64,000 nucleotides of DNA, from IMG/VR virus record IMGVR_UViG_3300045988_103907, positions 1 through 64,000 of that record; one strand, written 5' to 3'. Every line of letters begins with the position of its first letter. The stretch's first letter is position 1. The position numbers and the translations under genes are program-made. This document shows, piece by piece, positions 6,012 to 51,124 of this stretch. The notes below the pieces were generated by a model that saw only the letters and a program-made list of their open reading frames with translations, did no database searches and was not told where the DNA came from. Source of the DNA: a virus.

Positions 6012-6323
6012 TTAATCGAGAGTCACTGCGCCATTCGGCCAGTTACCGGTCATTTCATACCATTCCGTCTGAAGTGCATTCTCCTTTTCCTTTATGCACA
6101 TTTTAACAAAGTCATGGATTTCTTCGTCCTGTGGCCTTTTAAAAGTCCATTGCTCATCCACGAATCCTATATCTTCAAGACACTTGCAGTAGCCAGCAAT
6201 CTCGTTATAAAAGATATGGTCGTATTCACCCAGAAGAGTATGCTCGTCAAACAGCTTTACTTGCCATGCAATTCCAAATGGAGCTTCTTTCTCGGCATAA
6301 GATTCAACCGTATAATACTTCAT
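6012..6323 (-). CDS. Hypothetical protein
   Basis: 103 aa ORF, co-oriented. Confidence 0.35.
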   Translation of the reverse strand: MKYYTVESYAEKEAPFGIAWQVKLFDEHTLLGEYDHIFYNEIAGYCKCLEDIGFVDEQWTFKRPQDEEIHDFVKMCIKEKENALQTEWYEMTGNWPNGAVTLD

Positions 6324-6341
6324 TATGTATTCTCCTTGCGT

Positions 6342-6875
6342 TTACTGCTTTCCGGTAGAACCAAAACCGCCTGCTCCACGCTCAGTTTCGTCCAATTCGG
6401 AAACCTCTTCAAAATCAGCCTGCCAGAACGGAACAACTGCCATCTGAGCAATGCGGTCGCCATGAGTAATCATTTGAGGGATATTGGAATGATTATGTAG
6501 TGCTACGATATATTCTCCACGGTAATCCTGATCACAAATCCCTGTTTTATTCGCAGGTGCAAGCCCCTGTTTCGTTGCCATACCACTGCGAGCATAGATA
6601 GCGACATACCAACCTTCCGGCGGAGCCATCCGCAAACCAGTATGTACCTTAACGGTCTCATGCGGCTGAATCATAATGCAGCGATCACCATTCTTGTTTA
6701 CAATCGTTGCGTCATCAAAACCGATATAGGCGTACAGGTCTGCACAAGCAGCGTTTTTTGAGCCATAAGTCGGCAGATGAGCATCTTCGTGCAGTTTATT
6801 GATTTTAATGTTGGGGCGATACGGCATCCGACTCATGCCATAGCCAAGATTAGTAGTTGCGTTTCCTAAATCCAT
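6342..6875 (-). CDS. dut: dUTP diphosphatase (dUTPase)
   Basis: Motifs ARSG, ICDQDYRGE, GDRIAQM, RGAGGFGSTG; 177 aa. Confidence 0.85.
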   Translation of the reverse strand: MDLGNATTNLGYGMSRMPYRPNIKINKLHEDAHLPTYGSKNAACADLYAYIGFDDATIVNKNGDRCIMIQPHETVKVHTGLRMAPPEGWYVAIYARSGMATKQGLAPANKTGICDQDYRGEYIVALHNHSNIPQMITHGDRIAQMAVVPFWQADFEEVSELDETERGAGGFGSTGKQ

Positions 6876-6876
6876 A

Positions 6877-7422
6877 TTATTTTCCTTTCTCTTCTGGAGT
6901 CCACCAAAGGACTATATTGTCGTATCCAGTAGTTTTCATGCAATCGATAACTCTCTGATTAGAGCTTCCCATATAAGGTAGTGAGATGTCACGTTTTGAT
7001 TCAATATATGAGCCATCCACGATGACATCAATAAGATTTAAAATCATATCGATGTCATCATTTTTATTGAGCGGATTTATCTGGCTTAGTAATTCTTCAT
7101 AGGTATATCCAGTCCACATCCAGATGTCTTTTTTATCTCCAAACTCAACTAAGACTTTATAAATAATATCACTGATTGTTTCTCGATTTTCTGGATATAA
7201 CGGATCTCCGCCCGTGAGCGTCAACCCTTGAATATAATCAGGCCGAAGCAGCTCAATTAGTTCGTCTAGCGTTTCTTCTGTGAATGGCTGACCTGCGTTT
7301 GGGTCCCATGTCTGTGGATTATGACAACCGGGGCAATGATGGTTACATCCCGCGCAGAATAACGTGACTCTTACGCCCGGACCATTTGCTATATCACATG
7401 GGACAATCTTCATATAATTCAT
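6877..7422 (-). CDS. nrdG: Anaerobic ribonucleoside-triphosphate reductase activating protein (radical SAM)
   Basis: CAGCNHHCPGCHNPQTW cluster; start moved to MNYMKIVPCD, preceded by GAGGGAA RBS (read on the minus strand). Confidence 0.8.
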   Translation of the reverse strand: MNYMKIVPCDIANGPGVRVTLFCAGCNHHCPGCHNPQTWDPNAGQPFTEETLDELIELLRPDYIQGLTLTGGDPLYPENRETISDIIYKVLVEFGDKKDIWMWTGYTYEELLSQINPLNKNDDIDMILNLIDVIVDGSYIESKRDISLPYMGSSNQRVIDCMKTTGYDNIVLWWTPEEKGK

Positions 7423-10267: not shown

Positions 10268-10543
10268 TTATAGCTCCTCTTTGATGCACTGATTAGTCAG
10301 CTTTTCATATACATCCTCGTAAAGCTCCTGCTTGTCGCCGTTATAGGTATACTCTGCATAGATGCCGTCACCGCTAATGGTGGTGGACAGCAGAGCCTTA
10401 TAGTTCTGGAGAGTTTTGCAGCCCCAGACCACAAAAACGTTTTCCAGCGTAATTTCATCGGACGTATGCTCATAGTACCACTTGACAAGAGCATTCTTAC
10501 AAACACTTTCGAAGTGAGCCATACCTGTAATAATCATAATCAA
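10268..10543 (-). CDS. Hypothetical protein
   Basis: 91 aa, co-oriented. Confidence 0.3.
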   Translation of the reverse strand: MIMIITGMAHFESVCKNALVKWYYEHTSDEITLENVFVVWGCKTLQNYKALLSTTISGDGIYAEYTYNGDKQELYEDVYEKLTNQCIKEEL

Positions 10544-11031
10544 GTCTCCTTTTTGAATATAACCGTAATCCAGTTATCTGGATAATCATCTTCTTCCTTT
10601 GTTGTTTTCACATATCCGGGCATTTCAAAATTCCACGCAAGATAATTTAGAATTTCAAGGTTGTGTAAATCGCAATAATACCAGTCCCATGGTCTACTCC
10701 ATTCCGACCAATGAAGAAGATATGCATTATCACGGCAAGTAAGATAAAAACTATTGTCCAAAGTACACACGCTGCACACTTTTGGAAACGCATGTCTTAG
10801 GATACGGTCAGTTCGCTTATCGCTCCACTTATTCAACTTCTTGCGACGGAACCTCTCTGCGACAACAAAGAGTCTCTCAAGCCAGTAGATAATGATAAGA
10901 ATCGGATACAGAAACCAATAAGGTGTTTTAATGTTCATGTCCTTGTAATGATAGTATTTTGTGACCTTGGTTTCTTTCTTCTTTTCTTCTTGCAGCTTCT
11001 TACTAAGTCTGTCCATATTTAATCCCACCAA
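10540..11031 (-). CDS. Membrane hypothetical protein
   Basis: 163 aa with internal hydrophobic helix. Confidence 0.35.
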   Translation of the reverse strand: MVGLNMDRLSKKLQEEKKKETKVTKYYHYKDMNIKTPYWFLYPILIIIYWLERLFVVAERFRRKKLNKWSDKRTDRILRHAFPKVCSVCTLDNSFYLTCRDNAYLLHWSEWSRPWDWYYCDLHNLEILNYLAWNFEMPGYVKTTKEEDDYPDNWITVIFKKET

Positions 11032-11066: not shown

Positions 11067-11918
11067 TTACTCACCCTTAGTTACAACGGTGTCAGCACCC
11101 TGTACAGTTACCCAGCCATGCTTCAAACGTGCCTCTGCTTCCTTCATCTGAATCAGTTCAGGAGTGATGGACTCGGAAAGTACCTTATTTGCATCAGCCT
11201 CAGCCTGTGCCTCAATCATCTTAACGTCAGCTTCCGTCTGAGCCTTGACCTTATCAGTTTCGGCCTGAGCCAGAGCGGTCTGCTTGTTCAGTTCGGCAAT
11301 CTCCGCATCCTGCTTGGCCTGCTCCTTAGCACGAATCTTCTGCATCAGGGTATCGTCCGGCTGTGCATCAACAATCAGAGCAGAAGAGACATTGATACCA
11401 TATTCGGCGGTCAGCTTCTCATTTAGGTAATTAGTGATTGCGGTATTCACACCTGCTCGATCATCAGAATAAATCTGCATGACACTAAACTGAGGAGTCA
11501 CTTCCTTGACATAAGCAATAATGTCATTCTGAATCTTGCTCTCCATAAGGCTCTCGCCGTCCATGCCACCAAACTTGGTATACAGCTCAACGACATGTTC
11601 AGGCAGGAAATTATAGTTTACAGTCAGATTGATTGCAATCGTACCGCCATTTGCAGGAGCATCAATATGCCAGTCTGCGTGCTCCTTTGCACCGTAATCA
11701 GATGCTGCATTAGAAAAGACTACTCGCTGCTGAGTAATCGGGAACTCAGACACATGCTTTAGAGGACTCATAAAATGCCAGCCCTGAGAAATAGTCTGCT
11801 GCTCGACCCCCTTCGCGGAATAAACAACACCAACATAACCAGTATGTACCCGCTCGGTACAAAGCACTGCGCCAATTGCAACGAGGAACGCAACAAAAAT
11901 TGCCATAAATTTCTTCAT
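11067..11918 (-). CDS. SPFH/band-7 (prohibitin/HflK-like) membrane protein
   Basis: N-terminal anchor, SPFH core, C-terminal coiled coil AKEQAKQDAEIAELNKQ... Confidence 0.7.
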   Translation of the reverse strand: MKKFMAIFVAFLVAIGAVLCTERVHTGYVGVVYSAKGVEQQTISQGWHFMSPLKHVSEFPITQQRVVFSNAASDYGAKEHADWHIDAPANGGTIAINLTVNYNFLPEHVVELYTKFGGMDGESLMESKIQNDIIAYVKEVTPQFSVMQIYSDDRAGVNTAITNYLNEKLTAEYGINVSSALIVDAQPDDTLMQKIRAKEQAKQDAEIAELNKQTALAQAETDKVKAQTEADVKMIEAQAEADANKVLSESITPELIQMKEAEARLKHGWVTVQGADTVVTKGE

Positions 11919-12040
11919 AAATATCTCCTTAATCTTTATAGTTGTCTTTCAGAATGTAATAGGCGATAACCCATACAATCACGAAGAAAACAATGATTTC
12001 TTTCATATGTAACCCCACCAACCCACCGCTTATACATTAT

Positions 12041-14242
12041 TTAGTTGTCGCTCAAATGAACCACTCGATCTCGAATTTCCTGAGTGCGCCCCTGATTCCA
12101 AAAATTGGTTCCCAGGTAACCGCAGGTACGTCTTACGACATTCATTTTGTTCTGGTCACGATTACCACAATTCGGGCACTCCCATACAAGCTTGTGGTTT
12201 TTCTCATCTTCTACAATTTTAATTTCGCCGTCGTAACCACAGCACTGGCAGTAGTCGGACTTGGTGTTCAGCTCCGCATACATGATGTTGTCGTAAATGA
12301 ACTGCATAACACTAAGCACCGCAGGAATGTTCTGCTGCAGATTTGGCACCTCGATATAGCTAATCGCTCCTCCGGGAGAAAGCTTCTGGAACTCGCTCTC
12401 AAACTTTAGCTTAGTGAAAGCATCGATATGTTCACGGACAACGACATGATAAGAATTTGTTACGTAGTCATGGTCAGTAACATCTGGAATCATACCGAAC
12501 CGCTTCTGCAAGCAACGTGCAAATTCATATGTAGTGGACTCCAAAGGAGTACCATACAGGGAGTAATCGATGTTTTCAGCGGCCTTCCACTCGTTACACT
12601 TATCATTCATGTGCTGCATAATTTCGAGAGCGAAAGGTTTAGCATCAGGATCGGTGTGGCTCTTGCCGGTCATATACTTCACACACTCATACAGACCGGC
12701 ATAGCCCAGGCTGATGGTGGAATAGCCGCCGAAGAGTAACTTGTCGATCTTCTCGCCCTTCTTTAGACGAGCTAATGCACCGTACTGCCACAGGATAGGG
12801 GCCATATCAGAAGGAGTGCCGAGTAGACGCTTGTGACGAATCTGTAGAGCTCGATGACACAATTCGAGTCGTTCATCGAAGATTTTCCAGAATTTATCCT
12901 TGTCCCTTTTTGAACTGCAAGCCACATCTACCAGATTGATAGTTACCACACCCTGGTTAAAGCGGCCATAATACTTATGCCCCTTAACCCAATTCTTGGC
13001 ATTAGCTACGTTCTCAGTGGTGCGGTCAGGAGTAAGGAAGGATCTACAGCCCATGCTAGGCCACACACCGCCTTTAAGCTCCTTCATAACCTTTGCGGAA
13101 ATATAATCAGGAACCATTCGCTTGGCAGTACACTTAGCCGCCAGCTCAGTCAGGTAATAATACTTAGAATCAGGATGAATGTTATCCTCATCAAGAGCAT
13201 AAATGAGCTTTGGGAAGGCCGGAGTAACCCATACACCAACTTCATTCTTTACACCCTGAATGCGCTGTTTTAACACTTCTTCAACAATTAGAGCTAAATC
13301 ATCACGAGTCTGACCTTCTGGAACTTCATCGAGATACATGAACACGGTGATAAAGGGGGCCTGACCATTGGTGGTCATCAAAGTGACGACCTGATACTGG
13401 ATGGTCTGCACGCCACGAGCAATTTCTTTATGTAAACGCTCTTCTACAATTCGATTGATAGTTTCAGACTCCGGCATCTTATCGATTTCATTATTCTGAA
13501 CCATCTCGTAAAATTCTTGGTGTACTTCACTTGTAATCTTCTTGCGGGAAACATCCACGAATGGAGCCAGATGTGAAAGTGTAATACTCTGACCTCCAAA
13601 TTGCATCGAAGCCACCTGTGCGATGATCTGGGTCGCAATATTGCAGGCCGTGGAAAAGCTGTGGGGCTTTTCGATATAGGTGCCGGAGATGACAGTGCCG
13701 TTCTGGAGCATATCTTCCAGATTGACCAGATCGCAATTATGGCAGTGCATCACAAAATAATCTTTATCATGCACATGAATTAAACCATTTTTGTGTGCAT
13801 CTCGGATATCCTTTGGAAGTAGAAGTCTGTCAGTTAGTTCCTTAGATACCTCTCCGGCCATGTAATCACGTTGCGTGCTATTGATGGTTGCGTTCTTATT
13901 ACTATTTTCCTGATTGATTGCGTCGTTCTGGGCATCAAGAATTTCAAGAATACTTGCGTTGGTTTTCTCTTTATCTCGAATTTCCTGACGATACTGTCGC
14001 CACTGACTATATGCATCTGCAACATCGATGAACGGGCTATTTGCTAGACTGTCCACTACGATATCCTGAATCTGCTCAACAGAAAGAATGTCCGGCATGT
14101 CTGCGATATAGTCAGCAATCGCATTCGACACACGAGCGTCGATACCACCCGGCGTACAGGTCATCGCCTTCTCAATCGCATTTACAATCTTACTTTTGTC
14201 AAAAGGAACTTTCGTTCCGTTTCGTTTAATCACATAATCCAT
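12041..14242 (-). CDS. nrdD: Anaerobic ribonucleoside-triphosphate reductase (class III RNR)
   Basis: N-terminal ATP-cone (VIKRNGTKVPFDKSKI), C-terminal Zn site CPNCGN and glycyl-radical motif RTCGYLG; 733 aa. Confidence 0.9.
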   Translation of the reverse strand: MDYVIKRNGTKVPFDKSKIVNAIEKAMTCTPGGIDARVSNAIADYIADMPDILSVEQIQDIVVDSLANSPFIDVADAYSQWRQYRQEIRDKEKTNASILEILDAQNDAINQENSNKNATINSTQRDYMAGEVSKELTDRLLLPKDIRDAHKNGLIHVHDKDYFVMHCHNCDLVNLEDMLQNGTVISGTYIEKPHSFSTACNIATQIIAQVASMQFGGQSITLSHLAPFVDVSRKKITSEVHQEFYEMVQNNEIDKMPESETINRIVEERLHKEIARGVQTIQYQVVTLMTTNGQAPFITVFMYLDEVPEGQTRDDLALIVEEVLKQRIQGVKNEVGVWVTPAFPKLIYALDEDNIHPDSKYYYLTELAAKCTAKRMVPDYISAKVMKELKGGVWPSMGCRSFLTPDRTTENVANAKNWVKGHKYYGRFNQGVVTINLVDVACSSKRDKDKFWKIFDERLELCHRALQIRHKRLLGTPSDMAPILWQYGALARLKKGEKIDKLLFGGYSTISLGYAGLYECVKYMTGKSHTDPDAKPFALEIMQHMNDKCNEWKAAENIDYSLYGTPLESTTYEFARCLQKRFGMIPDVTDHDYVTNSYHVVVREHIDAFTKLKFESEFQKLSPGGAISYIEVPNLQQNIPAVLSVMQFIYDNIMYAELNTKSDYCQCCGYDGEIKIVEDEKNHKLVWECPNCGNRDQNKMNVVRRTCGYLGTNFWNQGRTQEIRDRVVHLSDN

Positions 14243-14254
14243 GTGATTCCTCCT

Positions 14255-15778
14255 TTACTCAACGTTCTGTGCGTTGTTATTCTCGGAAGTGATAGTAGAA
14301 TCACTTACAAGATTTACATTCTTAGTAACCTTGGCATCGTAACTGTTGGCACGTACAATCTCTCGCATATCAATGCCAGTGGCTTCCTTAACAGCCTCAA
14401 AAGTCTGTGCCATGACCGCCGGGACATTCCCAGAAATCTCAGAAACGCCATTTGCGTTACCGCCGATAATGGAAACCTTATCAATAGATGCCAGAGGCTT
14501 TGCAACCTGTTCTGCGATACTAGGCAGAATTTTAATGATCATCTCGCCCATTGCAGCACCGTTATACTGTTTGTAAGCCTCAGCCTTCTTCAGCATAGCC
14601 TCTGCTTCGGCAATACCCTTCTGCTTGATAGCATCTGCTTCAGCAGTACCAACCATTCGGATACCTTCAGCTTCCTGCTCCTTAGCAAACTTGGCAGACT
14701 CGGCAGCACGCTCTGCCTCGTACTTCTTTGCCTCAGCTTCCTTTTGACGCTTATACAGGTCTGCATCAGCCTGTTTGCGAATTTCAGCGTCCAACTTCTG
14801 CTGACGAACCTCTGCTTCCTGAGCGGCCAGTTCAACCATCTTTTTCTGTTTTGCAATCTCTGCATCAGCCTCAGCTTCCTTGATTTCCTTGGCACGAAGA
14901 TTCATCTGAATTTGACCAGCAGCTTCAGCATCAGCGGTCGCCTTGTCAGCTTTAGTCTTCAGAGCAGCCTGTGCCAGGACGAACTCATTGTTGCGTTGCG
15001 CAATAGCAGTCTTAGATTCAATTTCCTTCTCGTTTGCTTCGCGAGTAGTATCAGCCTTAGCGCGAGCAATATCACGAGCTGCTTCAGCCTTAGCAATCTC
15101 TGCCTGCTTCTTCACCAACTCTTCCTGCTGAACACCAATTGCCTCGATGACACCATGATTATGACCCTGAGCATCAATAGCATCCTTGATATCCTGAACA
15201 TTGAAAGTAACAACTTCCAGACCCATCTTTGCCAGATCAGGACGAGCATTCTCAACGACGGAAATTGCCATCTGCTTACGATTAGTCAGGATATCGTTGA
15301 CAGTCATCTCAGAAACAATCTCTCGCAGATTGCCCTGAAGGACATCATTGATCTTCTCGTTAATGCCATCTTCACTCATGCCAAGGAAGTTGGAAATAGC
15401 AGCCTGCTGACGAGCACTAATGTAAGTCTTTGCATCCTCGCAACCGGCGCTCTTAATCTCATCATCAGTTACAGTAGAGTTTTCAGAGTAAACCTGAACA
15501 GTAACAACAGAGTCCAGCCACAGAGAAACACCCTCTTTAGTCTTAACACCTGTTTCAGGAGTCTTAACATCAATCTTAAGCAGTCGCATATTTAGACGGT
15601 CAGCTCGCTGAATAACCGGAAGGACGAACACGCCACGACCACAGATAACTTTTGGCTTAGACAGCCCAAAACCTGTCACGACGATTGCCTGAGTAGGAGG
15701 AGCCTTCTTGTAGCAAGTAAATGCAAAGGCGACCAGAAGGACAATAACGACAGGAATTGCAATAAACATCATATTCAT
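14255..15778 (-). CDS. Flotillin-like SPFH protein (FloT/YqiK family)
   Basis: N-terminal TM, SPFH domain, long Ala/Glu/Lys-rich coiled coil; 507 aa. Confidence 0.75.
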   Translation of the reverse strand: MNMMFIAIPVVIVLLVAFAFTCYKKAPPTQAIVVTGFGLSKPKVICGRGVFVLPVIQRADRLNMRLLKIDVKTPETGVKTKEGVSLWLDSVVTVQVYSENSTVTDDEIKSAGCEDAKTYISARQQAAISNFLGMSEDGINEKINDVLQGNLREIVSEMTVNDILTNRKQMAISVVENARPDLAKMGLEVVTFNVQDIKDAIDAQGHNHGVIEAIGVQQEELVKKQAEIAKAEAARDIARAKADTTREANEKEIESKTAIAQRNNEFVLAQAALKTKADKATADAEAAGQIQMNLRAKEIKEAEADAEIAKQKKMVELAAQEAEVRQQKLDAEIRKQADADLYKRQKEAEAKKYEAERAAESAKFAKEQEAEGIRMVGTAEADAIKQKGIAEAEAMLKKAEAYKQYNGAAMGEMIIKILPSIAEQVAKPLASIDKVSIIGGNANGVSEISGNVPAVMAQTFEAVKEATGIDMREIVRANSYDAKVTKNVNLVSDSTITSENNNAQNVE

Positions 15779-15794
15779 GTATTTTTCTCCTTGA

Positions 15795-15884
15795 TTATTT
15801 TAAAACAAATTTGGCAAAGCCAAAAAACAACATTGTAACAAACAGGGCGAATGCCGCAAATGGTTCTTCCCAGTTGTATCTCAT
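15795..15884 (-). CDS. Small hydrophobic peptide (MRYNWEEPFAAFALFVTMLFFGFAKFVLK) immediately upstream of flotillin
   Basis: AAGAGG RBS 8 nt upstream of ATG; below ORF-track size threshold. Confidence 0.3.
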   Translation of the reverse strand: MRYNWEEPFAAFALFVTMLFFGFAKFVLK

Positions 15885-15897
15885 ATATGTAAACCTC

Positions 15898-16338
15898 TTA
15901 GAATTTGACTTCATCGGCACAATCAGGAACCACGGCAGTCTCAATGTTTGGAGCATGAATCTCTGGACAGAAAACCAAATCATCCGTATAGTCAGGCTTT
16001 GCATGACGAGGAATGTAATCCGGCATCGTAGTCAGCTTGTCAGTTACCTCGTTAGGAATCTTCTTTAGCGTATCTACGACACTTTCAGCAACTTTCTGCT
16101 GTTCCTCTAAAAGTCGGATTTTATAGTCCAAATACCAACGTGCCTTCGTTAAATCTTGAAGCAGAGAATTGCCATCCTTGTGCCCTGCACGGCTCAGATA
16201 CTTACCAGTGTTCCAAAGATAAGCATCCTTGTCCAATCCCCATTCATGAAGCACCTTAATTGCTTCATACGGATTATCTGCGCCTCCGTAGTGGGAAGGA
16301 TGGTCTGTATTTTTCTTGATGTCATCAAGTGTTTCCAT
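15898..16338 (-). CDS. DUF3310-like phage protein
   Basis: HPSHYGG...PYEAIKVLHEWGL...KYLSRAG signature recalled from DUF3310 family. Confidence 0.45.
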   Translation of the reverse strand: METLDDIKKNTDHPSHYGGADNPYEAIKVLHEWGLDKDAYLWNTGKYLSRAGHKDGNSLLQDLTKARWYLDYKIRLLEEQQKVAESVVDTLKKIPNEVTDKLTTMPDYIPRHAKPDYTDDLVFCPEIHAPNIETAVVPDCADEVKF

Positions 16339-17116
16339 TTAAAGCCTCCTGTTTCAGTTTGTCGTATTTATCACGAATCTCGTGGAACTTACCACAAGAC
16401 ATCATTCCTTCAGTACAACCATTACCACAGCAGTTGGGGCCAGCATACTTAAACAGATGAGGAGCAATCGGATAAACCAGCTTTAACATCTCGGTTGCAA
16501 GCTCCCTGATTTCCGGCTGCGCTCGCTCACAACAACGCAGGTTAAAGAAATTATTCAACGAACGAGCGTTCATTGTAACAATCATCTTTGTAGAACAAGC
16601 ATTTGGAAGAACAGAACGTGCATTCTCGTTTGCAATCTTGGACGCTTTTGCGCGTGCCTTTTTCTCAGTCAAACGAGAATCAGCAACCATCAGTTCCTCA
16701 GTAATCTTGTCCTCAAGAATCTGACATAGGTGCTTATAGGAATATTCAGCAGTCTGAATTGCCTGTTCAAACACTTCTCGTGCTTCGCTATCCTCATCAA
16801 TAACATCAGGAATGATGATTTCTGCATTATTCATTCGCACATAGCGCTGACTCTGCACACTAAATGACGCAATGCGGTGGCGGGTTATCTGAGCAAGCAA
16901 AGAACGGCTCACACTTTCGATTCCAAAAGTAAAAGTCACATGTTCAGTAGGACTGGCGTGACCAAGGCTAGAAAGTCGATTCAAAAATTCATCGACCTTC
17001 TCATCGGTCAGTCCATCCATCAAATCCTGAATACTCGAATTGGAATAGCACAGCTTTGCAGCGGCAGCTACCACCTTTTCAGGATCAGGAGTATGTGCAA
17101 TCAGTTCAACAGTCAT
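16325..17116 (-). CDS. thyX: Flavin-dependent thymidylate synthase
   Basis: ThyX motif RHRIASFSVQSQRY; 263 aa. Confidence 0.85.
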   Translation of the reverse strand: MTVELIAHTPDPEKVVAAAAKLCYSNSSIQDLMDGLTDEKVDEFLNRLSSLGHASPTEHVTFTFGIESVSRSLLAQITRHRIASFSVQSQRYVRMNNAEIIIPDVIDEDSEAREVFEQAIQTAEYSYKHLCQILEDKITEELMVADSRLTEKKARAKASKIANENARSVLPNACSTKMIVTMNARSLNNFFNLRCCERAQPEIRELATEMLKLVYPIAPHLFKYAGPNCCGNGCTEGMMSCGKFHEIRDKYDKLKQEALNGNT

Positions 17117-38487: not shown

Positions 38488-38579
38488 TGGTGGGACGTAA
38501 GGGACTCGAACCCCTGTGAGGTGTTATTCTCATCACCCGGTTATGAGCCAGGAGCTTTAACCAACTAAGCTAACGTCCC
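38488..38579 (-). tRNA. tRNA with CAU anticodon (Met/Ile2-type anticodon loop CUCAUAA) and an unusual ~20-nt variable arm; 92 nt with encoded CCA
   Basis: Hand-folded: acceptor GGGACGU/ACGUCCC, D arm GCUU/AAGC, anticodon stem CCUGG/CCGGG, T arm AGGGG-UUCGAGU-CCCUU. Confidence 0.5.
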
Positions 38580-38589
38580 ATGCAAACGC

Positions 38590-38680
38590 CGACTTTCATC
38601 GGCGCGATACCAGTGAAGGAATCGAACCTTATCTCTCGGTGTTTCCGAGCGCTTTTACCATTAAGCTATCCAGCCGTATA
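38590..38680 (-). ncRNA. tRNA-like element with canonical T arm (AAGG-UUCGAUU-CCUU) and D-arm-like segment but no foldable acceptor/anticodon stem; possible pseudo-tRNA
   Basis: Hand-folding fails (anticodon stem CUCGG/CCGAG encloses only 5 nt); followed by hairpin CGCCGA-UGAAAG-UCGGCG. Confidence 0.25.
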
Positions 38681-38806
38681 CCTCAGAATTTAATTCTCAC
38701 TATCCAAGCTACGTCGCGTTCCAATATGATCACTCTTGGCAACCATGTCGTAACATATAGGTTTCTTTCGGCTCTGAGTAACCGGTGCAGCGTAAGGGGC
38801 TGCGTG

Positions 38807-38882
38807 TGGAGCGACTGACGGGGTATGATCCCGCAACATTCAGATTGGAAATCTGACGCTCTGCCAATTGAACTACAGTCGC
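38807..38882 (-). tRNA. tRNA-Gly (UCC)
   Basis: Acceptor GCGACUG/CAGUCGC, anticodon loop UUUCCAA, 76 nt with CCA; atypical T loop AUCAUAC. Confidence 0.7.
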
Positions 38883-38988
38883 ATAATCACCCAGCTTGCA
38901 AAGCACTACTGCACCATCACTGGCGAGCTGGGAATAATAGTGGTAATCAAAGGAGATCAACAAACGGTACGCAACCATAAGTTGATAA

Positions 38989-39077
38989 TGGTGGACACGA
39001 CCCGATTTGAACGGGCACACCGCTGTTAACGGCAAAAGAGCCTAAATCTTTCATGTCTGCGATTCCATCACGTGTCC
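38989..39077 (-). tRNA. tRNA-Leu (UAG), class II
   Basis: Acceptor GGACACG/CGUGUCC, anticodon stem AAAGA/UCUUU loop UUUAGGC, variable arm CCG-UUAACAG-CGG, T arm GCCCG-UUCAAAU-CGGGU, CCA encoded. Confidence 0.65.
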
Positions 39078-39082
39078 ATAAA

Positions 39083-39172
39083 TTGAGGGTGTCGGGATCG
39101 AACCGACGATCGGCTATAAAGCACGCTGTCTGGGTCAAAGCCAGATGCCATTTACCACTTGGCGAACCCTCA
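39083..39172 (-). tRNA. tRNA with UUG anticodon (Gln-type loop CUUUGAC) and an unusual 21-nt variable arm; 90 nt, no encoded CCA
   Basis: Acceptor UGAGGGU/ACCCUCA, D arm GCCA/UGGC, anticodon stem UCUGG/CCAGA, T arm GUCGG-UUCGAUC-CCGAC. Confidence 0.5.
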
Positions 39173-39271
39173 TTATGTAACTTGGCTTGCTGCGTCCTAC
39201 TGCTCCGTTTTTTTGGAGAGCCAAGAATAATAGGAAGGTATTCATGAAAAGCAAGTGGAATACTCCACTGG

Positions 39272-39343
39272 TCCAAAATGTCGAATTCGAATCGCTCTTC
39301 TGCGTCCCAAACGCAGCGTGCTGCCATTACACTACATTCTGGA
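39272..39343 (-). ncRNA. Degenerate tRNA-like sequence (intact acceptor and UGG anticodon arm, defective D and T stems); possible pseudo-tRNA-Pro
   Basis: Acceptor UCCAGAA/UUUUGGA, anticodon stem CUGCG/CGCAG loop UUUGGGA; T stem pairs only 3 bp around UUCGAAU. Confidence 0.3.
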
Positions 39344-39345
39344 TA

Positions 39346-39433
39346 TGGTGCTACCGGAGGGGTATGATCCCTCAATTCCTCTCGGACGGTTGCTTTTAAG
39401 GCAACTGTGTCTCGCCAATTGCACCACGGTAGC
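39346..39433 (-). tRNA. tRNA-Leu (UAA), class II
   Basis: Acceptor GCUACCG/CGGUAGC, anticodon stem GUUGC/GCAAC loop CUUAAAA, variable arm UCC-GAGA-GGA, T arm GAGGG-AUCAUAC-CCCUC, CCA encoded. Confidence 0.7.
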
Positions 39434-39465
39434 ATATAATGTGGCGAGATAACTCGCCACATGTA

Positions 39466-40347
39466 TTATTTTCTTAATTCTTTCCTAGTTGCCGGGAGGC
39501 CATAATATCTACACCATTTTCTAACGGCATTATCAGTCACTCCATATTTTTCGCCAACCTTTAAGAAAGACATAGTTGTTATATCATTCAACAAAGTTTC
39601 TTTTGATGGCCATTCAACATTCCTTCTATCCGGCGAATGCCTATAGCATTCTTTACACAATGTTCCTTTCGTATTGTATTGTAAAGGTTTGCCACACACA
39701 GAGCATCGTCTGCATCTACATTCTCTTTTCTTAACAGGAACTGAAACTTCCTTTTTAGTAAATTCGATATTGTTTTCTTTAATCAATCTTTTAGCTTTGT
39801 CGTACCAACTCTTCGCGGAATAATTTATACCAATTTTAGAAAGTGCTTGTTTTATATTTGGTGATACTTTAAGTGCTTCTATCAACTTTTCTTCTGGAAC
39901 GGCCTCTTTGTATCTTATATTTTTCCCGCAGTAATTATCTGTTTGAGCATGACAATTTGGACATAAAAGTTGTAGATTGCTCAACTCATTGTTAAGCCTA
40001 TCTCCATCTACATGATGAACCTCCAATGGAATTTCATGTCCCAACTATTCTGTATTGCCACAACATTCACATTTATGAGGTCTTATGTAAAGCAAGGCTT
40101 TCCTTAACTGACTGCTAAAATATACTCCCTTTGTAAATTTTGACAAATCAAAGTTACCTTTGTTCTAGCCTTGTCCAGTAAAATGGGATATGTCTATATT
40201 ATTCTCTTCAACATATTTCTTTAAAGCCGAGTGAGTTCCACCGCTGTTGTCTTTATATCCAAGTTTTCTTGCAACAGCATCTAAGCTTTTACTCTCTCTA
40301 AAAGCTTGCTCAATTTCTTTTTTTGTAAATTTGTCGATTCTTTTCAT
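39466..40347 (-). CDS. HNH homing-endonuclease-like gene whose single reading frame is interrupted by two in-frame TAG codons (40165-40167 and 40045-40047): pseudogene or amber-recoded/suppressed gene
   Basis: Joined frame: N-terminal HTH-like 60 aa, TAG, ...IRPHKCECCGNTE, TAG, LGHEIPLEVHHVDGDRLNNELSNLQLLCPNCH (classic HNH), Zn-finger region, C-terminal KYGVTDNAVRKW HTH. Confidence 0.6.
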
Positions 40348-40538
40348 GAATTTGCCTCCAATATCTAATATGTGGACGTTCGGACTCTGGTGCCAAGGAC
40401 GGTATTCGAAACCGCATGTGTTTCCACAGCGAGGTTTGGGCTCGCCCTGTCTCCCATTTGCAGCACCTTGGCATATTGCCGGTCTTTCCCGGCTGTCAGC
40501 CCCGCGCAGGGCATTTTCGGAGGAAGAAAATATCTTAG

Positions 40539-42749
40539 TTATTCGTGCCGATTCTCATAGAATTCATTCCGTAACTGAATAATACCCTTCTTGCAAAAAG
40601 ATTCCTGGTCTTTCTCTCGTTGCTCACGCATCCAACCATAGAACAGGTTATCCTCAGCAGTAAACAACTTTGCGGTATTTTCATAATAGCCACGCTTCTG
40701 AACGCTCTGCATAACACCACGCAAGAACTTCCAGTGCTTATAATAAGGAAGCTTCAGCTTAAACATAAAATTGTTGTTATCTCTCAAAACAAAGCCTTCA
40801 ATATGCTCGATGCCATGGTACAGATAATTCTCATTCATGACCTCTTCATACCAAGGATAGAATTCACTCCAGCTCTCAAAGATCTTAACCTTCTCCTTAA
40901 TCTGCAAATGACACTTTTCAGCAACACGCTTCAGATCATCGTAATCCATCACACTGAAGTTCATATCATTCGCAACAATATCCAGCAAAACAATGTGCGG
41001 TTTCTTGTATTCGATGATATGAGCATCATTCACAGGATCAATCACTTCAAAAATGATGGAACCATTCTCTTTTGCAACCTCCTTCAAATTCTTACGGTCT
41101 TCATCAGAGGTCGTATCCATGAGAATCTTTCGGAACATATCTGCAAAAGGCCCTTCAGGAGTGGATTTACTTGCAATGAACATACCATCCTGTTCTGCAT
41201 CATACGAGACAATGCCAAGAAATCCGTTTTCCTTCAGATATGCAGTCACCGGGAACTTCAAAGTGTTCTGTAGGTTTCCAATTCTCGTTTCATTCCGCTC
41301 ATCGACCGCAAAGGACTTATCATAGCTTCGAGCTACAATCTTATTCGTCTTTGTGTTAATGAACAATCCCCTTGCTTTGGTAGAAACCTCATCCCAGTGC
41401 TTCTTATAAAATGCTTCACGAGAGAAGTTGAAGGAAGAAATATCTCCGAATCGCTTCTCAAACACATATTTGCTTTGACGCATCTTACTGACAAGTTCTG
41501 CGTTATCGAACTCAGTTTTCATTTCAACGGCAGTTTCAGTCTTTGGCTCCTCTTTTCGGAATACATCGTTCTTTGTTTCTACACATTTGATTGACTGACC
41601 GTGTTCAAGTTCCACGCAACGGAGATATCCACCAAACTCAATTTTTCCTTCGAGGTTGTAGCACCGATGCCCCATATCAATAGGAACATCCTGCACATTT
41701 CGATGACCGAATATCTGAATGTAGCTATCCGGCATCGATTTTTCCCAAGACTCAGCCACGGTTAGCATATCAGGATAGCGACCAACACCCTTTACCATCT
41801 GGTCAGTAGACACGAATGGTAGAAATTCAGGCAAATAACTCAAACCACCATGGCTAACGAAGTATCTTTTCTCGTCGTAATCAAAATAGGAGCACTGTCC
41901 TACTCTCGAATAAACCTTACGAGCCGTATTATGGTCAATCCCTGCTTTGAAAAGCTGCGGACGAGTGTAGTTTGCGAACTCCTCGCTCTGAACCGGTTCA
42001 TCATGGCCCCACTTGTTCAGCCACCGTTCGTGATTTCCTTCAAGGAGAATTACATTCTTCCGATTATTGTCTACAACATCACAAAGGAACTTGAACATCT
42101 CTACATTCTCAATACCGCGATCCAGATAATCACCAACAAAAATGTACAGTTCATCATCCTTCAGGTCACCAAGGTACTCTTTCAAGCAACTGTAACATCC
42201 ATGTACATCACCGATGATATGAATTTTGTTCCAGTTGTTAAAGTCCTGCGGAACATAGTTCAATTTCTCAAGGACATTTACATCTGACGAAAGTACAGTC
42301 ACACCAGACGGAATCTTCTGTGTAGCAAATCGCGCATACATCTTATCAATAGCAGCATCTGGAACTCGCTTCAGAGGAGCACGAAGCGCATTACGCCGTT
42401 TACACTCATCAATCGGCAAATCAGTCATGTCGATGATGTACATTCTGTATCTGTACTGCTTTGCAAGATTCTTATAGCGATTGATTTCAACAGTTTTAGA
42501 GTTCGTTGCATCAATCACGGTAAATTCACCGTGAGACATCCGAACCTCCAACAGTTTAAAGAGCATATCCCAGACAACATCATCGTTCTGAGGAGAGATT
42601 TCCATTGTGCCAGCCGGGGTTTCCTGACCACCCTGACACATAAGGCGAATCGTATCGGCACTAAGCGTATACTTTTCCAGATCATGCTCTTTAATATAGG
42701 TGGATTTCCCGCATCCGGGTGCTCCACGGAAAAGAAGCAAAGTTCTCAT
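40539..42749 (-). CDS. Pnkp-like polynucleotide kinase / metallophosphatase / ligase-like adenylyltransferase (end-healing and sealing RNA-repair enzyme)
   Basis: N-terminal P-loop GAPGCGKST, central calcineurin-like IHIIGDVHGCYSCL...GDYLDRG...GNHE, C-terminal ligase motif I-like LKENGFLG; 736 aa. Confidence 0.65.
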   Translation of the reverse strand: MRTLLLFRGAPGCGKSTYIKEHDLEKYTLSADTIRLMCQGGQETPAGTMEISPQNDDVVWDMLFKLLEVRMSHGEFTVIDATNSKTVEINRYKNLAKQYRYRMYIIDMTDLPIDECKRRNALRAPLKRVPDAAIDKMYARFATQKIPSGVTVLSSDVNVLEKLNYVPQDFNNWNKIHIIGDVHGCYSCLKEYLGDLKDDELYIFVGDYLDRGIENVEMFKFLCDVVDNNRKNVILLEGNHERWLNKWGHDEPVQSEEFANYTRPQLFKAGIDHNTARKVYSRVGQCSYFDYDEKRYFVSHGGLSYLPEFLPFVSTDQMVKGVGRYPDMLTVAESWEKSMPDSYIQIFGHRNVQDVPIDMGHRCYNLEGKIEFGGYLRCVELEHGQSIKCVETKNDVFRKEEPKTETAVEMKTEFDNAELVSKMRQSKYVFEKRFGDISSFNFSREAFYKKHWDEVSTKARGLFINTKTNKIVARSYDKSFAVDERNETRIGNLQNTLKFPVTAYLKENGFLGIVSYDAEQDGMFIASKSTPEGPFADMFRKILMDTTSDEDRKNLKEVAKENGSIIFEVIDPVNDAHIIEYKKPHIVLLDIVANDMNFSVMDYDDLKRVAEKCHLQIKEKVKIFESWSEFYPWYEEVMNENYLYHGIEHIEGFVLRDNNNFMFKLKLPYYKHWKFLRGVMQSVQKRGYYENTAKLFTAEDNLFYGWMREQREKDQESFCKKGIIQLRNEFYENRHE

Positions 42750-45634: not shown

Positions 45635-46411
45635 TCACTCCATTTCGTTCAGAAGCTCTTTTGCATGGTCAAGCACAGTATTGGAAACGACCTTGCCGCC
45701 GCGATTTAGAAGCAAGAACACACGCAACGTATCCTTCTTAGAAAGATTCCGCAAATCCGCGATAGCAATTGCAGTCTCATCAAAGGTTCTCTTATCCTTC
45801 TTAGAGAGTTCACTGTACAGATATCCTTTATAACGGAACCGATCTTCGTAGAACGCAGCAAGTGTCAGAAGTCTCTGCTTACCGTCAATGATTTCATAAA
45901 GGTAGTTCTGATTTTCATGCCATTCGTCCATGCCAATGTTTTTCAGAACAAATCGACCGATTTCACCACCCATAAAAATTGTCTCAAGAAGCAGTTTACG
46001 GTCATCATCCGTCCATACGGACCCACGCTGGTAACTCGGATTGCAATTGATGCCAAAGAAATAATACCTGTGAAGTAAAGATTCAATAGTCACGTTTGAG
46101 TAAGAAATCTTAATATCTTCATTCTCTGTCAGTTGAGATTTTTTCTCAACACCTGCTTTACGAATGTTAAACCACGTTTCGTACCTATATCCATCATCAT
46201 AAGAAACACCGTAATATAAACCACCGTCGCAGACTTCATCAATCTTGCATCCGCTAAGATTACCAATCTCTACAGCATCTCCCACATCATAATAGTATGT
46301 AGGCTCGCCAGCACGACTTGCCATCTCAGGAAGCTCCGTAAAAGTAGGCGACTTACGAGCTATTTCTTTCGGTGCCAATTGTTTAGCTTCTACTGTCTTC
46401 TTTTTCAGCAC
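45635..46411 (-). CDS. DUF262/ParB-like domain protein
   Basis: IIDGKQRLLTLAAF resembles the DGQQR motif of DUF262 (GmrSD N-domain) / ParB DGHHR. Confidence 0.5.
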   Translation of the reverse strand: MLKKKTVEAKQLAPKEIARKSPTFTELPEMASRAGEPTYYYDVGDAVEIGNLSGCKIDEVCDGGLYYGVSYDDGYRYETWFNIRKAGVEKKSQLTENEDIKISYSNVTIESLLHRYYFFGINCNPSYQRGSVWTDDDRKLLLETIFMGGEIGRFVLKNIGMDEWHENQNYLYEIIDGKQRLLTLAAFYEDRFRYKGYLYSELSKKDKRTFDETAIAIADLRNLSKKDTLRVFLLLNRGGKVVSNTVLDHAKELLNEME

Positions 46412-49568: not shown

Positions 49569-50258
49569 TTATGCTGTTCCCAGCTCTCTTTTAACAAGCG
49601 GACGACGTTTTGTTGCGTTTTTCAACCAATCGTTTCCACTAGGAGCTTGTCTATCCACTCTTGTATTACGGCCACTCCCTATCGGACACACCCGTCGATA
49701 ATCATCAACGGTCTTACAACCAAGAGATTCAGCTTCGTCCAGTGCTTTTCGCACATAAGCCCATGTACCACCGCCTAGATCAGAACACTTTCCAATCACG
49801 GCAAGCACGAGTTCATCACCCATACGCTCAACATATTCTGCCAATGCCTTCTTTCCTGTGGCACCGAGCTTCCCGATATTCTCTCGAAATACGTCCTCGA
49901 TAGATTTCGTCGTTGTCTCTTCATAAGACGAAGACGATATCTTTTCTTTTTCTTTCTCTTTTTCTTTTTCTAGCTTGCTCTTGCTTGCGTTTGCTTCGTT
50001 TTGCTTACGCTTGCTTTCTCCGCCAGCCCTTCCAGAAATGCGCTTACCTTCGATGTATTCAGCATCCTTAATTAAATCCCTCTTGATAGCAGGCCACACA
50101 TACCGCTCATTTCCGTTAAGTTCAGGCTCCGTTCCAGACGATTTATATTTCATCATCGCCAGTACCAGACGCCCCACCTCAGCAGCACTAAGTGGTTCAA
50201 AGTAGCTCTCATAAGTATCCCAGATTTTAATATAAGTATCAGCCATCATACACCTCAA
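49569..50258 (-). CDS. Hypothetical protein with KE-repeat linker and DnaD-like C-terminal region (possible replication-associated)
   Basis: KSKLEKEKEKEKEK low-complexity run; C-terminal LAEYVERMGDELVLAVIGKCSDLGGGTWAYVRKALDEAE reminiscent of DnaD-like domains. Confidence 0.35.
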   Translation of the reverse strand: MRCMMADTYIKIWDTYESYFEPLSAAEVGRLVLAMMKYKSSGTEPELNGNERYVWPAIKRDLIKDAEYIEGKRISGRAGGESKRKQNEANASKSKLEKEKEKEKEKISSSSYEETTTKSIEDVFRENIGKLGATGKKALAEYVERMGDELVLAVIGKCSDLGGGTWAYVRKALDEAESLGCKTVDDYRRVCPIGSGRNTRVDRQAPSGNDWLKNATKRRPLVKRELGTA

Positions 50259-51124
50259 GAGTCTTCATGACAGTCCACGCCATAATCAATCCCAGAGTAG
50301 TATTCATCATCCACTTCTTCATCCAGACCAATATAGCGAAGCGTAATTGCCTGACTACTGTGATTCAGACTATGCTGCAACCACGCAAGAGCTTTTACGT
50401 CATTTGGATGAGATTCAATAAACTGATATCCGAAAGTTTTGCGGCAACTATGAGAACCAAGCTGTACAGAAAGATTTAACTCCTTACCAACTTGACGCAT
50501 GATTCTACCAAAAGAATCTACATCAAGCGGATCGCCCATTTCTTTTGGATTCGCATCATACTTACGGAACACATCAGATTTACTCACGCTTGTTCCACCG
50601 TTTGTTCTCATGGAGTTCTTCCAACTGCCTTGCCGAGACGGGAAGAGCCAATCGTCATAAGACAATCCATCAATATTGATATAAGTTTGAATACACTTTA
50701 ATGCCGGGACCGGAACTTTAAGAATGCGATACTTATTTGTTTTCTTTTCCTTAACACGAAGTTTTGCGTTGAAATTCACCACAACCTTTCCATTCATATC
50801 TGTAGCTGCTACATCAGAAACCTTCAAACGAAGCAAATCACTTGCTCTGAATCCTGTGCAACATCCTACATTAAACAAACACCAGTTGCGGTACTGACGT
50901 TTAATCCAAAAATATTCTGAAATACGTTTGATATCCTCTTTGTCTTTAATTGGCTGAACTGACCCATGATTTGCTTCCATACGAGTTAGGCTATAATTCT
51001 TTTTAACTACGTTCTGACGTTTTTCTTTGTTAGAAGAATCGTAGTCAGAAAAATCAAGAGCAACAGTATTTTCGATTTTCTTTTCGTTTTCAAGCGCACT
51101 CATCACATTCACCTTAAACTCCAT
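50255..51124 (-). CDS. Second tyrosine recombinase (XerC/D-like)
   Basis: LGSHSCRKTFG ... LQHSLNHSSQAITLRYI (R, H-x-x-R, H, Y). Confidence 0.7.
   Translation of the reverse strand: MEFKVNVMSALENEKKIENTVALDFSDYDSSNKEKRQNVVKKNYSLTRMEANHGSVQPIKDKEDIKRISEYFWIKRQYRNWCLFNVGCCTGFRASDLLRLKVSDVAATDMNGKVVVNFNAKLRVKEKKTNKYRILKVPVPALKCIQTYINIDGLSYDDWLFPSRQGSWKNSMRTNGGTSVSKSDVFRKYDANPKEMGDPLDVDSFGRIMRQVGKELNLSVQLGSHSCRKTFGYQFIESHPNDVKALAWLQHSLNHSSQAITLRYIGLDEEVDDEYYSGIDYGVDCHEDS

Follow-up and report, generated by a model that had tools for sequence, protein, structure and literature searches.

Two SPFH-domain genes flanking nrdD in a temperate Faecalibacterium phage: a predicted prohibitin/HflK-C-like protein with a small transmembrane partner, and a flotillin of probable host-lineage origin in a variable gene slot

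Results

SPFH-Domain Proteins Encoded on Both Sides of nrdD

The DNA studied here is a stretch of 64,000 nucleotides (hereafter, the window) from the virus record IMGVR_UViG_3300045988_103907, and at issue are two of its genes that lie on either side of nrdD, the gene for the anaerobic ribonucleotide reductase (Table 1). One encodes a protein of 283 amino acids, which we refer to as SPFH-1, and the other a protein of 507 amino acids that belongs with the flotillins. Both had been assigned to the SPFH (band-7/flotillin) group in a first-pass annotation made from the letters of the DNA, and a Pfam search bears this out for both open reading frames (ORFs): the Band_7 model (gathering cut-off 23.6 bits) is matched by SPFH-1 with an E-value of 7.5e-24 (85.2 bits) and by the flotillin with an E-value of 2.7e-19 (70.3 bits). 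An N-terminal anchor and a long helix are likewise found in each protein. Kyte-Doolittle hydropathy over 17 residues peaks at residues 4–20 in both cases (2.87 in SPFH-1, 3.06 in the flotillin); the helix comprises residues 189–250 in a structural model of SPFH-1 and corresponds to an Ala/Glu/Lys-rich stretch in the flotillin (residues 216–400; 24% Ala, 16% Glu, 14% Lys). When all ORFs of the window were searched with a hidden Markov model of the SPFH-1 family and with phmmer using the flotillin, these two were the only SPFH ORFs in the 64 kb. As only the low-complexity helix is similar in the two (blastp E 8e-5), we reject a recent duplication that would have made them paralogues.

SPFH-1, a Predicted Prohibitin/HflK-C-Like Protein of an Old Phage Family

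An AlphaFold2 model of SPFH-1, built from 53 diverse homologues (predicted local distance difference test score 91), consists of a transmembrane (TM) helix (residues 2–20), the SPFH domain (residues 21–187), the above-mentioned helix of 62 residues and a short C-terminal helix (residues 253–266). Used as a query in Foldseek, this model retrieved prohibitin, erlin and HflK/C at the top (E 1e-14 to 1e-12), with stomatin and QmcA also among the leading matches (down to about 1e-10) and flotillin placed lower (1e-9). At the sequence level, residues 1–280 of the protein align with positions 81–349 of the 379 positions of the PHROG_200 profile (E 9.6e-55). By its modelled fold, SPFH-1 is predicted to be a prohibitin/HflK-C-like SPFH protein, and it falls into the phage family PHROG_200. 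The initial description of the protein as HflK/prohibitin-like consequently stands for the fold and does not extend to membership in the HflK/C families by sequence. We rejected the label 'lipoprotein' attached to PHROG_200: the lipobox in front of Cys20 is poor (A-V-L-C, with a Leu instead of a small residue beside the Cys), and this Cys is not conserved in the family consensus.

Relatives of SPFH-1 are numerous. At E ≤ 1e-3, 1942 clusters at 50% identity match the family, and tblastn found 502 isolate phage records that span Staphylococcus Kayvirus, Enterococcus Schiekvirus, Bacillus Bastillevirinae, streptococcal prophages and haloarchaeal viruses; the nearest isolate with a relative of SPFH-1 is Clostridium phage Amboise (44% identity). 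The BFVD database contains many SPFH folds of phages and giant viruses. Phage SPFH ORFs were listed as early as 2006 (PMC1524935) and MbpS of Kayvirus was discussed in 2020 (PMC7150955), while the literature on phage SPFH proteins and flotillins did not reveal a phage SPFH protein whose function had been tested. Viral SPFH genes are thus already widely annotated, and the initial description of two such genes in the nucleotide-metabolism block of a phage as unusual is not supported.

Two sets of related loci were surveyed. The first was anchored on a conserved gene of 115 codons, and its 63 loci with enough flanking DNA are referred to below as the sampled relatives; the second was anchored on SPFH-1 and comprised 80 loci. 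SPFH-1 is present in 52 of the 63 sampled relatives, and its ratio of nonsynonymous to synonymous substitution rates (dN/dS) is 0.04–0.06. Two IMG/VR contigs of 113–115 kb (L126, L128) carry SPFH-1 variants with a different N-terminus and 87–90% identity from residue 34 on; these lie at another genome position, with neither the small peptide gene described next nor nrdD nearby.

Small Transmembrane Proteins Encoded Beside Phage SPFH Genes

Next to SPFH-1 lies a gene for a peptide of 25 amino acids (MKEIIVFFVIVWVIAYYILKDNYKD), absent from the first-pass account, whose stop codon overlaps the AAGGAG ribosome-binding site (RBS) of SPFH-1. The peptide (hydropathy 2.56) has a single TM segment. Its gene is found with SPFH-1 at 78 of the 80 loci anchored on the latter, and loci that lack SPFH-1 lack it too; dN/dS is uninformative at the length of this peptide and of the 29-residue peptide described below. 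In our reading, SPFH-1 and the peptide make up an old and widespread phage module. In seven of eight other lineages examined, a small single-TM gene abuts the phage SPFH gene. Its product comprises 102 amino acids in Kayvirus (MbpV), 59 in Amboise, 67 in Schiekvirus (encoded downstream), 44 in Bequatrovirus, 91 in Sextaecvirus, and 42 and 24 (the latter uncalled) in two metagenomic lineages. The exception is the SPFH gene of the Streptococcus prophage Javan532, which has no adjoining small TM gene. We regard this recurrence as a lead and not as an established finding.

The first-pass annotation had pointed to pairs of the flotillin/NfeD type, and this part of its reading fell: NfeD (PF01957) was ruled out as a partner, as neither the 25-residue peptide (listed as an ORF of 30 codons), nor the 29-residue peptide, nor the product of orf163, the gene just downstream of SPFH-1, had any Pfam match at E ≤ 0.01.

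A small TM partner that recurs in this way is one of the points in favor of a role in lysis. The peptide would then be holin- or antiholin-like, and a cage formed by the SPFH protein would sequester it or aid the export of a lytic enzyme, thereby setting the timing of lysis. The mbpV-mbpS pair of Kayvirus is positioned between the endolysin gene lysK and the transglycosylase gene tgl, MbpV has been noted as holin-like, and MbpS has been proposed to assist the Sec export of Tgl (PMC7150955). However, the module is found among genes of nucleotide metabolism, with no lysis gene nearby, in the phage studied here, in Schiekvirus and in Bequatrovirus; none of the genes identified in the flanking 10 kb is a lysis gene, and the 25-residue peptide has almost no soluble tail. 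We therefore judge control of lysis to be quite unlikely as the function of the module.

A Flotillin Probably Acquired From the Host Lineage

The 507-residue protein had been called flotillin-like, and this identification could be made firmer. C-terminal to Band_7 it contains the Flot domain (PF15975; residues 371–459; E 1e-7; 32.5 bits, the cut-off being 27), its residues 27–489 align with residues 6–434 of human flotillin-1 (9l3g_A; E 1.6e-48), and flotillin-2 is matched with an E-value of 3e-41. Residues 7–477 align with positions 6–474 of the 477 positions of the NCBIfam FloT model NF058507 (E 7e-77); the score of 259 bits lies under the equivalog cut-off of 700 bits. Judged by these profile matches, the protein is a true member of the flotillin family and not an equivalog of Bacillus subtilis FloT.

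Its nearest cellular relatives are the chromosomally encoded flotillins of Gemmiger formicilis ATCC 27749 and Subdoligranulum variabile, whose full-length identity to it is 75–77% (best tblastn segment, 79%); the next clade stands at 48%. The G+C content at third codon positions (GC3) is 0.43 in the phage copy, 0.42 in the phage polymerase gene and 0.88 in the Gemmiger flotillin gene. Within the phage clade, the dN/dS of the flotillin gene is 0.04–0.06 at synonymous distances (dS) of 0.4–0.8. Identity to the Gemmiger/Subdoligranulum proteins, the phage-like GC3 and the low dN/dS together argue for an origin in the host lineage, an old capture and selective maintenance. The transfer was not recent, because three groups of bacteria or mobile elements, 76–83% identical among themselves, are all at about the same distance from the phage clade. 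The flotillin gene was thus in all probability captured from the Gemmiger/Subdoligranulum/Faecalibacterium lineage, recoded to the codon usage of the phage and kept under strong purifying selection. We are nearly certain of the identity and origin of both scaffold genes. In Gemmiger, the flotillin gene is located among thiamine-biosynthesis and ECF/ABC-transporter genes, and no NfeD neighbor was present among the ORFs scanned at this locus. An inverted repeat (tcatcagc...gctgatga) is found in the 5' leader of the chromosomal flotillin gene of G. formicilis (L034, 5860–5955).

An identity of 75–77% to bacterial chromosomal genes might raise the suspicion of host DNA, of a chimeric assembly or of a passenger gene in decay that has no function in the phage. 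This explanation is effectively refuted: at least 17 independent viral contigs show the arrangement in synteny, GC3 is like that of the phage polymerase gene and far from that of Gemmiger, dN/dS stays at 0.04–0.06 with dS up to 0.8, and the ORFs are intact and have good RBSs. The block is phage DNA, as had been assumed, with replication and tRNA genes around it and with counterparts on viral contigs of 70–141 kb.

The isolate collection holds ten records that match the flotillin, most of them weakly or in fragments. A profile scan of IMG/VR found at least 201 contigs with flotillins. These include a group of elements of about 350 kb with 47% GC (76–78% identity) and an ORFan-rich group of about 160 kb (38–39%), so that capture of flotillins by large mobile elements has happened several times. 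The first group (L033, L015, L022 and L027; IMG/VR contigs of 140–389 kb) is very prevalent and may represent a jumbo phage or a megaplasmid; near its flotillin gene there are genes for a Dam methylase, a ParM/Alp7A-like actin and a surface protein of 1452 amino acids with MBG repeats. In the second (L265–L290; contigs of about 140–166 kb), a flotillin with Band_7 and Flot domains is encoded among same-strand ORFans (for example L274, 4977–6437), and this is an independent capture by another large phage-like clade. The paper by Perkons deals with integration into a host floA gene and not with a phage-borne flotillin.

A Variable Gene Slot Upstream of nrdD

The flotillin gene occupies a slot that begins at a DUF3310 gene, which adjoins it in all surveyed relatives, and ends at nrdD. 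Its contents are a lemA gene (LemA, PF04011) together with a gene for a two-TM protein of 258 amino acids (p258), a gene for a 30-residue peptide alone, a gene for a 29-residue peptide together with the flotillin gene, or combinations of these. LemA is present in 43 and the flotillin in nine of the 63 sampled relatives; the flotillin is hence an accessory cargo in a swap-prone slot that more often holds the LemA cassette. All variants share the same 5' junction (examples are L131 at 6041–7322, L067 and L049, and the 29-codon ORF of the window), which looks like a recombination junction for membrane-protein cargo.

The gene for the hydrophobic 29-residue peptide (MRYNWEEPFAAFALFVTMLFFGFAKFVLK) had been noted, with a strong RBS, just upstream of the flotillin. 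It is indeed preceded by AAGAGG, about 9 nucleotides before the ATG and overlapping the stop codon of the DUF3310 gene, and the reading frame has stayed open in 16 of the 17 relatives that carry a flotillin. Neither Pfam nor PHROG contains a match to the peptide. It has the RBS, the ATG and the first five codons (MRYNW) in common with the lemA gene of LemA-type genomes, and a 30-residue relative (MRYNWEYPLV...) is encoded directly upstream of nrdD in flotillin-less phages. These observations rule it out as a flotillin-specific partner, and the peptide is best read as the junction, or the resident, at the 5' side of this position.

With its membrane-protein cassettes that can replace one another, the hypervariable slot resembles phage morons and defense islands, and it invites the thought that the flotillin/LemA cassette does not serve lytic development; instead it would be lysogenic-conversion cargo, expressed by the prophage to alter the envelope of the lysogen (superinfection exclusion, defense or counter-defense, stress tolerance). 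The phage is temperate, as witnessed by its integrases, a Xis gene and copies in Mb-size contigs; in Javan532 the SPFH homologue is encoded between repressor and integrase, and an SPFH protein from a prophage island is a virulence factor in Pasteurella (PMC9872710). Against this stands that the PADLOC-DB 2.0 defense models gave no match for SPFH-1, the flotillin, LemA, its partner p258 or the orf163 product, by which membership in a known defense system was rejected. Moreover, the flotillin gene lacks its own promoter and terminator, and same-strand early/middle genes adjoin it closely on both sides, which suggests expression together with the replication block rather than from a repressed prophage. 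On balance, we consider lysogenic conversion an unlikely explanation.

Position of nrdD Between the Two SPFH Genes

The two SPFH genes had been described as bracketing nrdD within the nucleotide-metabolism block. They do flank it in the window, but they vary independently of each other and are not a unit: SPFH-1 and the flotillin occur together in three of the 63 sampled relatives, and the configuration of the window is a minority one. The nrdD gene itself is found at a fixed syntenic position with alleles that are 28, 81, 90 and 98% identical to the copy in the window (relatives L049–L128), and thyX, likewise fixed in position, has two alleles (34 and 96%). Core metabolic genes have thus been replaced by alleles within a single phage clade, and since nrdD and thyX are swapped among relatives, the bracketing reflects layout and not linkage. 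The location of nrdD between SPFH-1 and the flotillin is an accident of genome layout, and nrdD is not functionally tied to them.

In an Enterococcus phage, GVEsP-1 (Schiekvirus; L215, 481–2252), and in a Bacillus phage, vB_BcgM (Bequatrovirus; L216, 1027–3123), a PHROG_200 SPFH gene with an adjacent small TM gene is found beside the gene for an NrdG-like radical-SAM activase or for thymidylate synthase. Together with the adjacency seen in the window, these neighborhoods in two genera of the Herelleviridae could be taken to favor a coupling of the two scaffolds to NrdD, for instance in a membrane-tethered factory for anaerobic dNTP synthesis. Such a coupling is highly improbable: the flotillin and SPFH-1 come and go independently of nrdD, which is always present, the nrdD allele is exchanged (28–98% identity) regardless of its neighbors, the chromosomal flotillin gene of Gemmiger is not beside a ribonucleotide reductase gene, and the context is unrelated in Kayvirus and in Javan532. 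The neighborhoods in the two Herelleviridae genera are most simply explained by a shared residence among early/middle genes.

Genomic Context and Identity of the Phage

All on one strand, the window encodes DnaB, a primase, RecJ, a polymerase of 1071 amino acids, a RecD-like helicase, a ligase and a Pnkp/RNA ligase, as well as seven tRNAs, NrdG, a dUTPase, FolD and two integrases. The same gene block recurs on IMG/VR contigs of 70–141 kb and inside contigs of 2.76–3.06 Mb, where FolD, a Tn916-type Xis and an integrase stand at its end; from the latter it follows that the element is a large temperate phage. The SPFH-1 copy on the Mb-size contigs is 99% identical to that of the window and bears the name 'SPFH domain-containing protein [Faecalibacterium prausnitzii]'. 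The source of the window is a temperate phage of about 125–140 kb whose host, Faecalibacterium, belongs to the strictly anaerobic gut Clostridia. Its clade is very common in human gut metagenomes. Megablast revealed no close isolate phage but three partial matches to 'Bacteriophage sp.', and the literature on this phage group and on NrdD of Faecalibacterium phages nowhere describes the clade.

Table 1. Genes around the two SPFH genes of the window.
Feature	Position	Strand	Remarks
thyX	16325–17116	-	neighbor upstream of the DUF3310 gene
DUF3310 gene	15898–16338	-	Pfam DUF3310, E 1e-9; conserved upstream edge of the variable slot
29-residue peptide ORF (MRYNWEEPFAAFALFVTMLFFGFAKFVLK)	15795–15884	-	hydrophobic; putative 5' resident of the slot
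Flotillin gene, 507 aa	14255–15778	-	Band_7 and Flot domains
nrdD, anaerobic ribonucleotide reductase	12041–14242	-	ATP-cone, NRDD (E 2.7e-192) and Gly_radical domains
25-residue single-TM peptide gene (MKEIIVFFVIVWVIAYYILKDNYKD)	11929–12006	-	ORF-listed as 30 aa from an upstream TTG
SPFH-1 gene, 283 aa	11067–11918	-	Band_7; PHROG_200
orf163	10540–11031	-	variable membrane-protein gene

Genes in the region are separated by gaps of 10–35 nucleotides, RBSs overlap stop codons and no intergenic terminator is present. This arrangement suggests co-transcription with the replication and nucleotide genes, which for the SPFH genes is plausible. The membrane-protein gene orf163 occurs at only about 11 of the 80 SPFH-1 loci, and its product had no match in PHROG, NCBIfam, PADLOC or Pfam.

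Elsewhere in the window, the seven tRNA genes (Met, Gly, Leu x3, Gln, Pro; 38488–40472) adjoin the gene for a Pnkp/RNA-ligase fusion of 736 amino acids (PHROG_8238; 40539–42749), an arrangement that suggests tRNA repair against anticodon nucleases of the host. Mid-genome, genes for a GmrSD_N-domain protein (45635–46411) and a second tyrosine integrase (50255–51124) are present in addition to the terminal Tn916-type integrase gene (226–1392), and in relative L129 a Tn916-type Xis is encoded between FolD and the terminal integrase.

Discussion

Putative Membrane Cages on Opposite Faces of the Host Membrane

In the SPFH-1 family, Lys and Arg residues are more abundant on the N side of the anchor in 38 of 51 sequences and on the C side in one, while in flotillins they are more abundant on the C side in each of 12 sequences. 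According to the positive-inside rule, this bias predicts an N-in/C-out orientation for SPFH-1 and a position facing the cytoplasm for the flotillin, so that the two scaffolds are predicted to reside on opposite faces of the membrane.

To our knowledge, all SPFH proteins with a solved structure form closed oligomeric cages by which a patch of membrane is fenced off (HflK/C around FtsH, prohibitin, erlin, stomatin, QmcA-YbbJ, flotillin-1/2). By analogy, we consider it likely that the phage proteins assemble into membrane cages. In the explanation that we favor, two independently acquired membrane-scaffold genes would reside inside one long same-strand block. SPFH-1 would assemble a closed oligomeric cage on the outer face of the membrane, as HflK/C and prohibitin do, and would work with its translationally coupled 25-residue TM peptide; in some variants of the phage, the flotillin would add a scaffold facing the cytoplasm like that of FloT. 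The scaffolds may partition the host membrane and enclose membrane clients during infection or lysogeny, by which membrane integrity would be stabilized and the turnover of membrane proteins controlled to the benefit of the phage. We hold this explanation as a whole, from identity and origin to cage and function, to be reasonably probable. FtsH-type proteases are the archetypal clients of HflK/C-like proteins, and the ideas of FtsH control and of membrane microdomains put forward in the first-pass annotation are plausible; that FtsH is the actual client of SPFH-1 seems doubtful to us.

Several observations weigh against this explanation or parts of it. SPFH-1 is missing in six of the nine flotillin-bearing relatives and in five of the 54 others (Fisher p 4.5e-4, uncorrected for shared ancestry), and this negative association hints at redundancy, which sits uneasily with the predicted placement on opposite faces; the topology is itself a prediction from the positive-inside rule. 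In sequence searches, SPFH-1 had no phmmer match to any PDB chain, HflK/C included, and no NCBIfam match, and by its fold prohibitin and erlin rank level with HflK/C. Any client of SPFH-1, be it FtsH or another protein, is named by pure analogy, and nothing found here points to FtsH specifically. PHROG_200 genes are found in the lysis region in Kayvirus, in the lysogeny module in Javan532 and among nucleotide genes in the phage studied here, and these differing contexts argue against one specific role. For flotillins of possible hosts, a single pattern-based scan of contigs returned Gemmiger and Subdoligranulum and no Faecalibacterium.

A bolder proposal is that phage SPFH proteins and their coupled mini-TM peptides (24–102 residues, no NfeD fold) constitute a minimal module of a cage plus a caged client across the large phages of Firmicutes, which would capture a membrane machine of the host, for instance FtsH, or else a holin-like peptide of the phage itself, and so set the outcome of lysis or lysogeny; in the clade of the phage studied here, the flotillin and LemA cassettes would be interchangeable counterparts on the cytoplasmic face. 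We offer it as a speculation with a low probability. If it were true, the clade would amount to a natural swap experiment on the role of SPFH scaffolds in bacteria.

What SPFH and flotillin scaffolds do in the bacterial cell is a matter of continuing debate, and over 20 years of annotating such genes in phages no function of theirs has been tested. Against this background, the natural variants of the phage (SPFH-1 only, flotillin only, both, or the LemA cassette at the same site) are ready-made comparison sets, and the mini-TM partner is a concrete and testable lead for the client of phage SPFH cages. The flotillin, if derived from the host lineage as proposed, is a clean case of a membrane-organizing host gene captured and long maintained by a temperate phage of a health-associated gut bacterium. 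Our findings are an incremental addition that overturns no current knowledge, and both proteins belong to known kinds; the details that we consider worthwhile are a swap-prone slot for membrane cargo, a flotillin of probable host-lineage origin and a recurrent mini-TM partner.

Comparison With Known SPFH Systems

The best structural matches of the SPFH-1 model are Escherichia coli HflK/HflC-FtsH (PDB 7VHQ, 7WI3, 9CZ2) and human prohibitin and erlin (8RRH, 9O9Z, 9VVJ), with Foldseek E-values of 1e-14 to 1e-11 and a probability of 1.0. Like HflK/C and prohibitin, the phage protein has an N-terminal TM segment, a predicted extracytoplasmic SPFH domain and a long wall helix. Identity to HflK/C and prohibitin/erlin is, however, only 15–19%. 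With no match to PDB chains or to the NCBIfam HflK/C models, SPFH-1 falls outside the HflK and HflC families by sequence, and the likeness is one of fold only. Unlike the HflK/C or PHB1/2 heteropairs, the window contains a single gene of the SPFH-1 subfamily, and its neighbor is the 25-residue peptide.

In SPFH-NfeD operons, such as those of E. coli QmcA-YbbJ (PDB 8Z5G) and PH1511-PH1510, an SPFH gene is co-transcribed with an adjoining gene for a membrane protein, as is plausible here, and QmcA is a structural match to SPFH-1 (E 7e-10). Here, in contrast, we found neither an NfeD domain nor an OB fold nor a protease domain, and the partners are bare TM helices of 25–29 residues.

The phage flotillin resembles B. 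subtilis FloT (YuaG) and flotillin-1/2 (PDB 9BQ2, 9L3G): it is colinear with them over the full length and has Band_7 and Flot domains, an Ala/Glu/Lys-rich helix and a charge pattern that predicts a cytoplasmic orientation. It differs from FloT of B. subtilis in being phage-encoded, and in that no NfeD (YuaF-like) gene is adjacent to it here or to its counterpart in the Gemmiger chromosome. From the Gemmiger and Subdoligranulum flotillin genes it is set apart by the GC3 given above and by its location, the chromosomal gene residing in a housekeeping context.

Among phage systems, the comparison is with the MbpV-MbpS pair of Kayvirus (Staphylococcus phages K, G1 and P4W) and with the other phage proteins of PHROG_200, which are labeled 'lipoprotein/HflK/prohibitin-family'. 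The partner peptide here has 25 residues, whereas MbpV has 102 and a charged tail, and the two share no sequence similarity; SPFH-1 is encoded amid nucleotide metabolism in a phage of strictly anaerobic gut Clostridia, whereas the Kayvirus pair belongs to the lysis region. Nevertheless, MbpS and SPFH-1 fall into the same PHROG, match in tblastn over the full length (26% identity, E 8e-22), and have the same plan of an N-terminal TM segment, an SPFH domain and a helix, with a coupled gene for a small single-TM protein immediately upstream.

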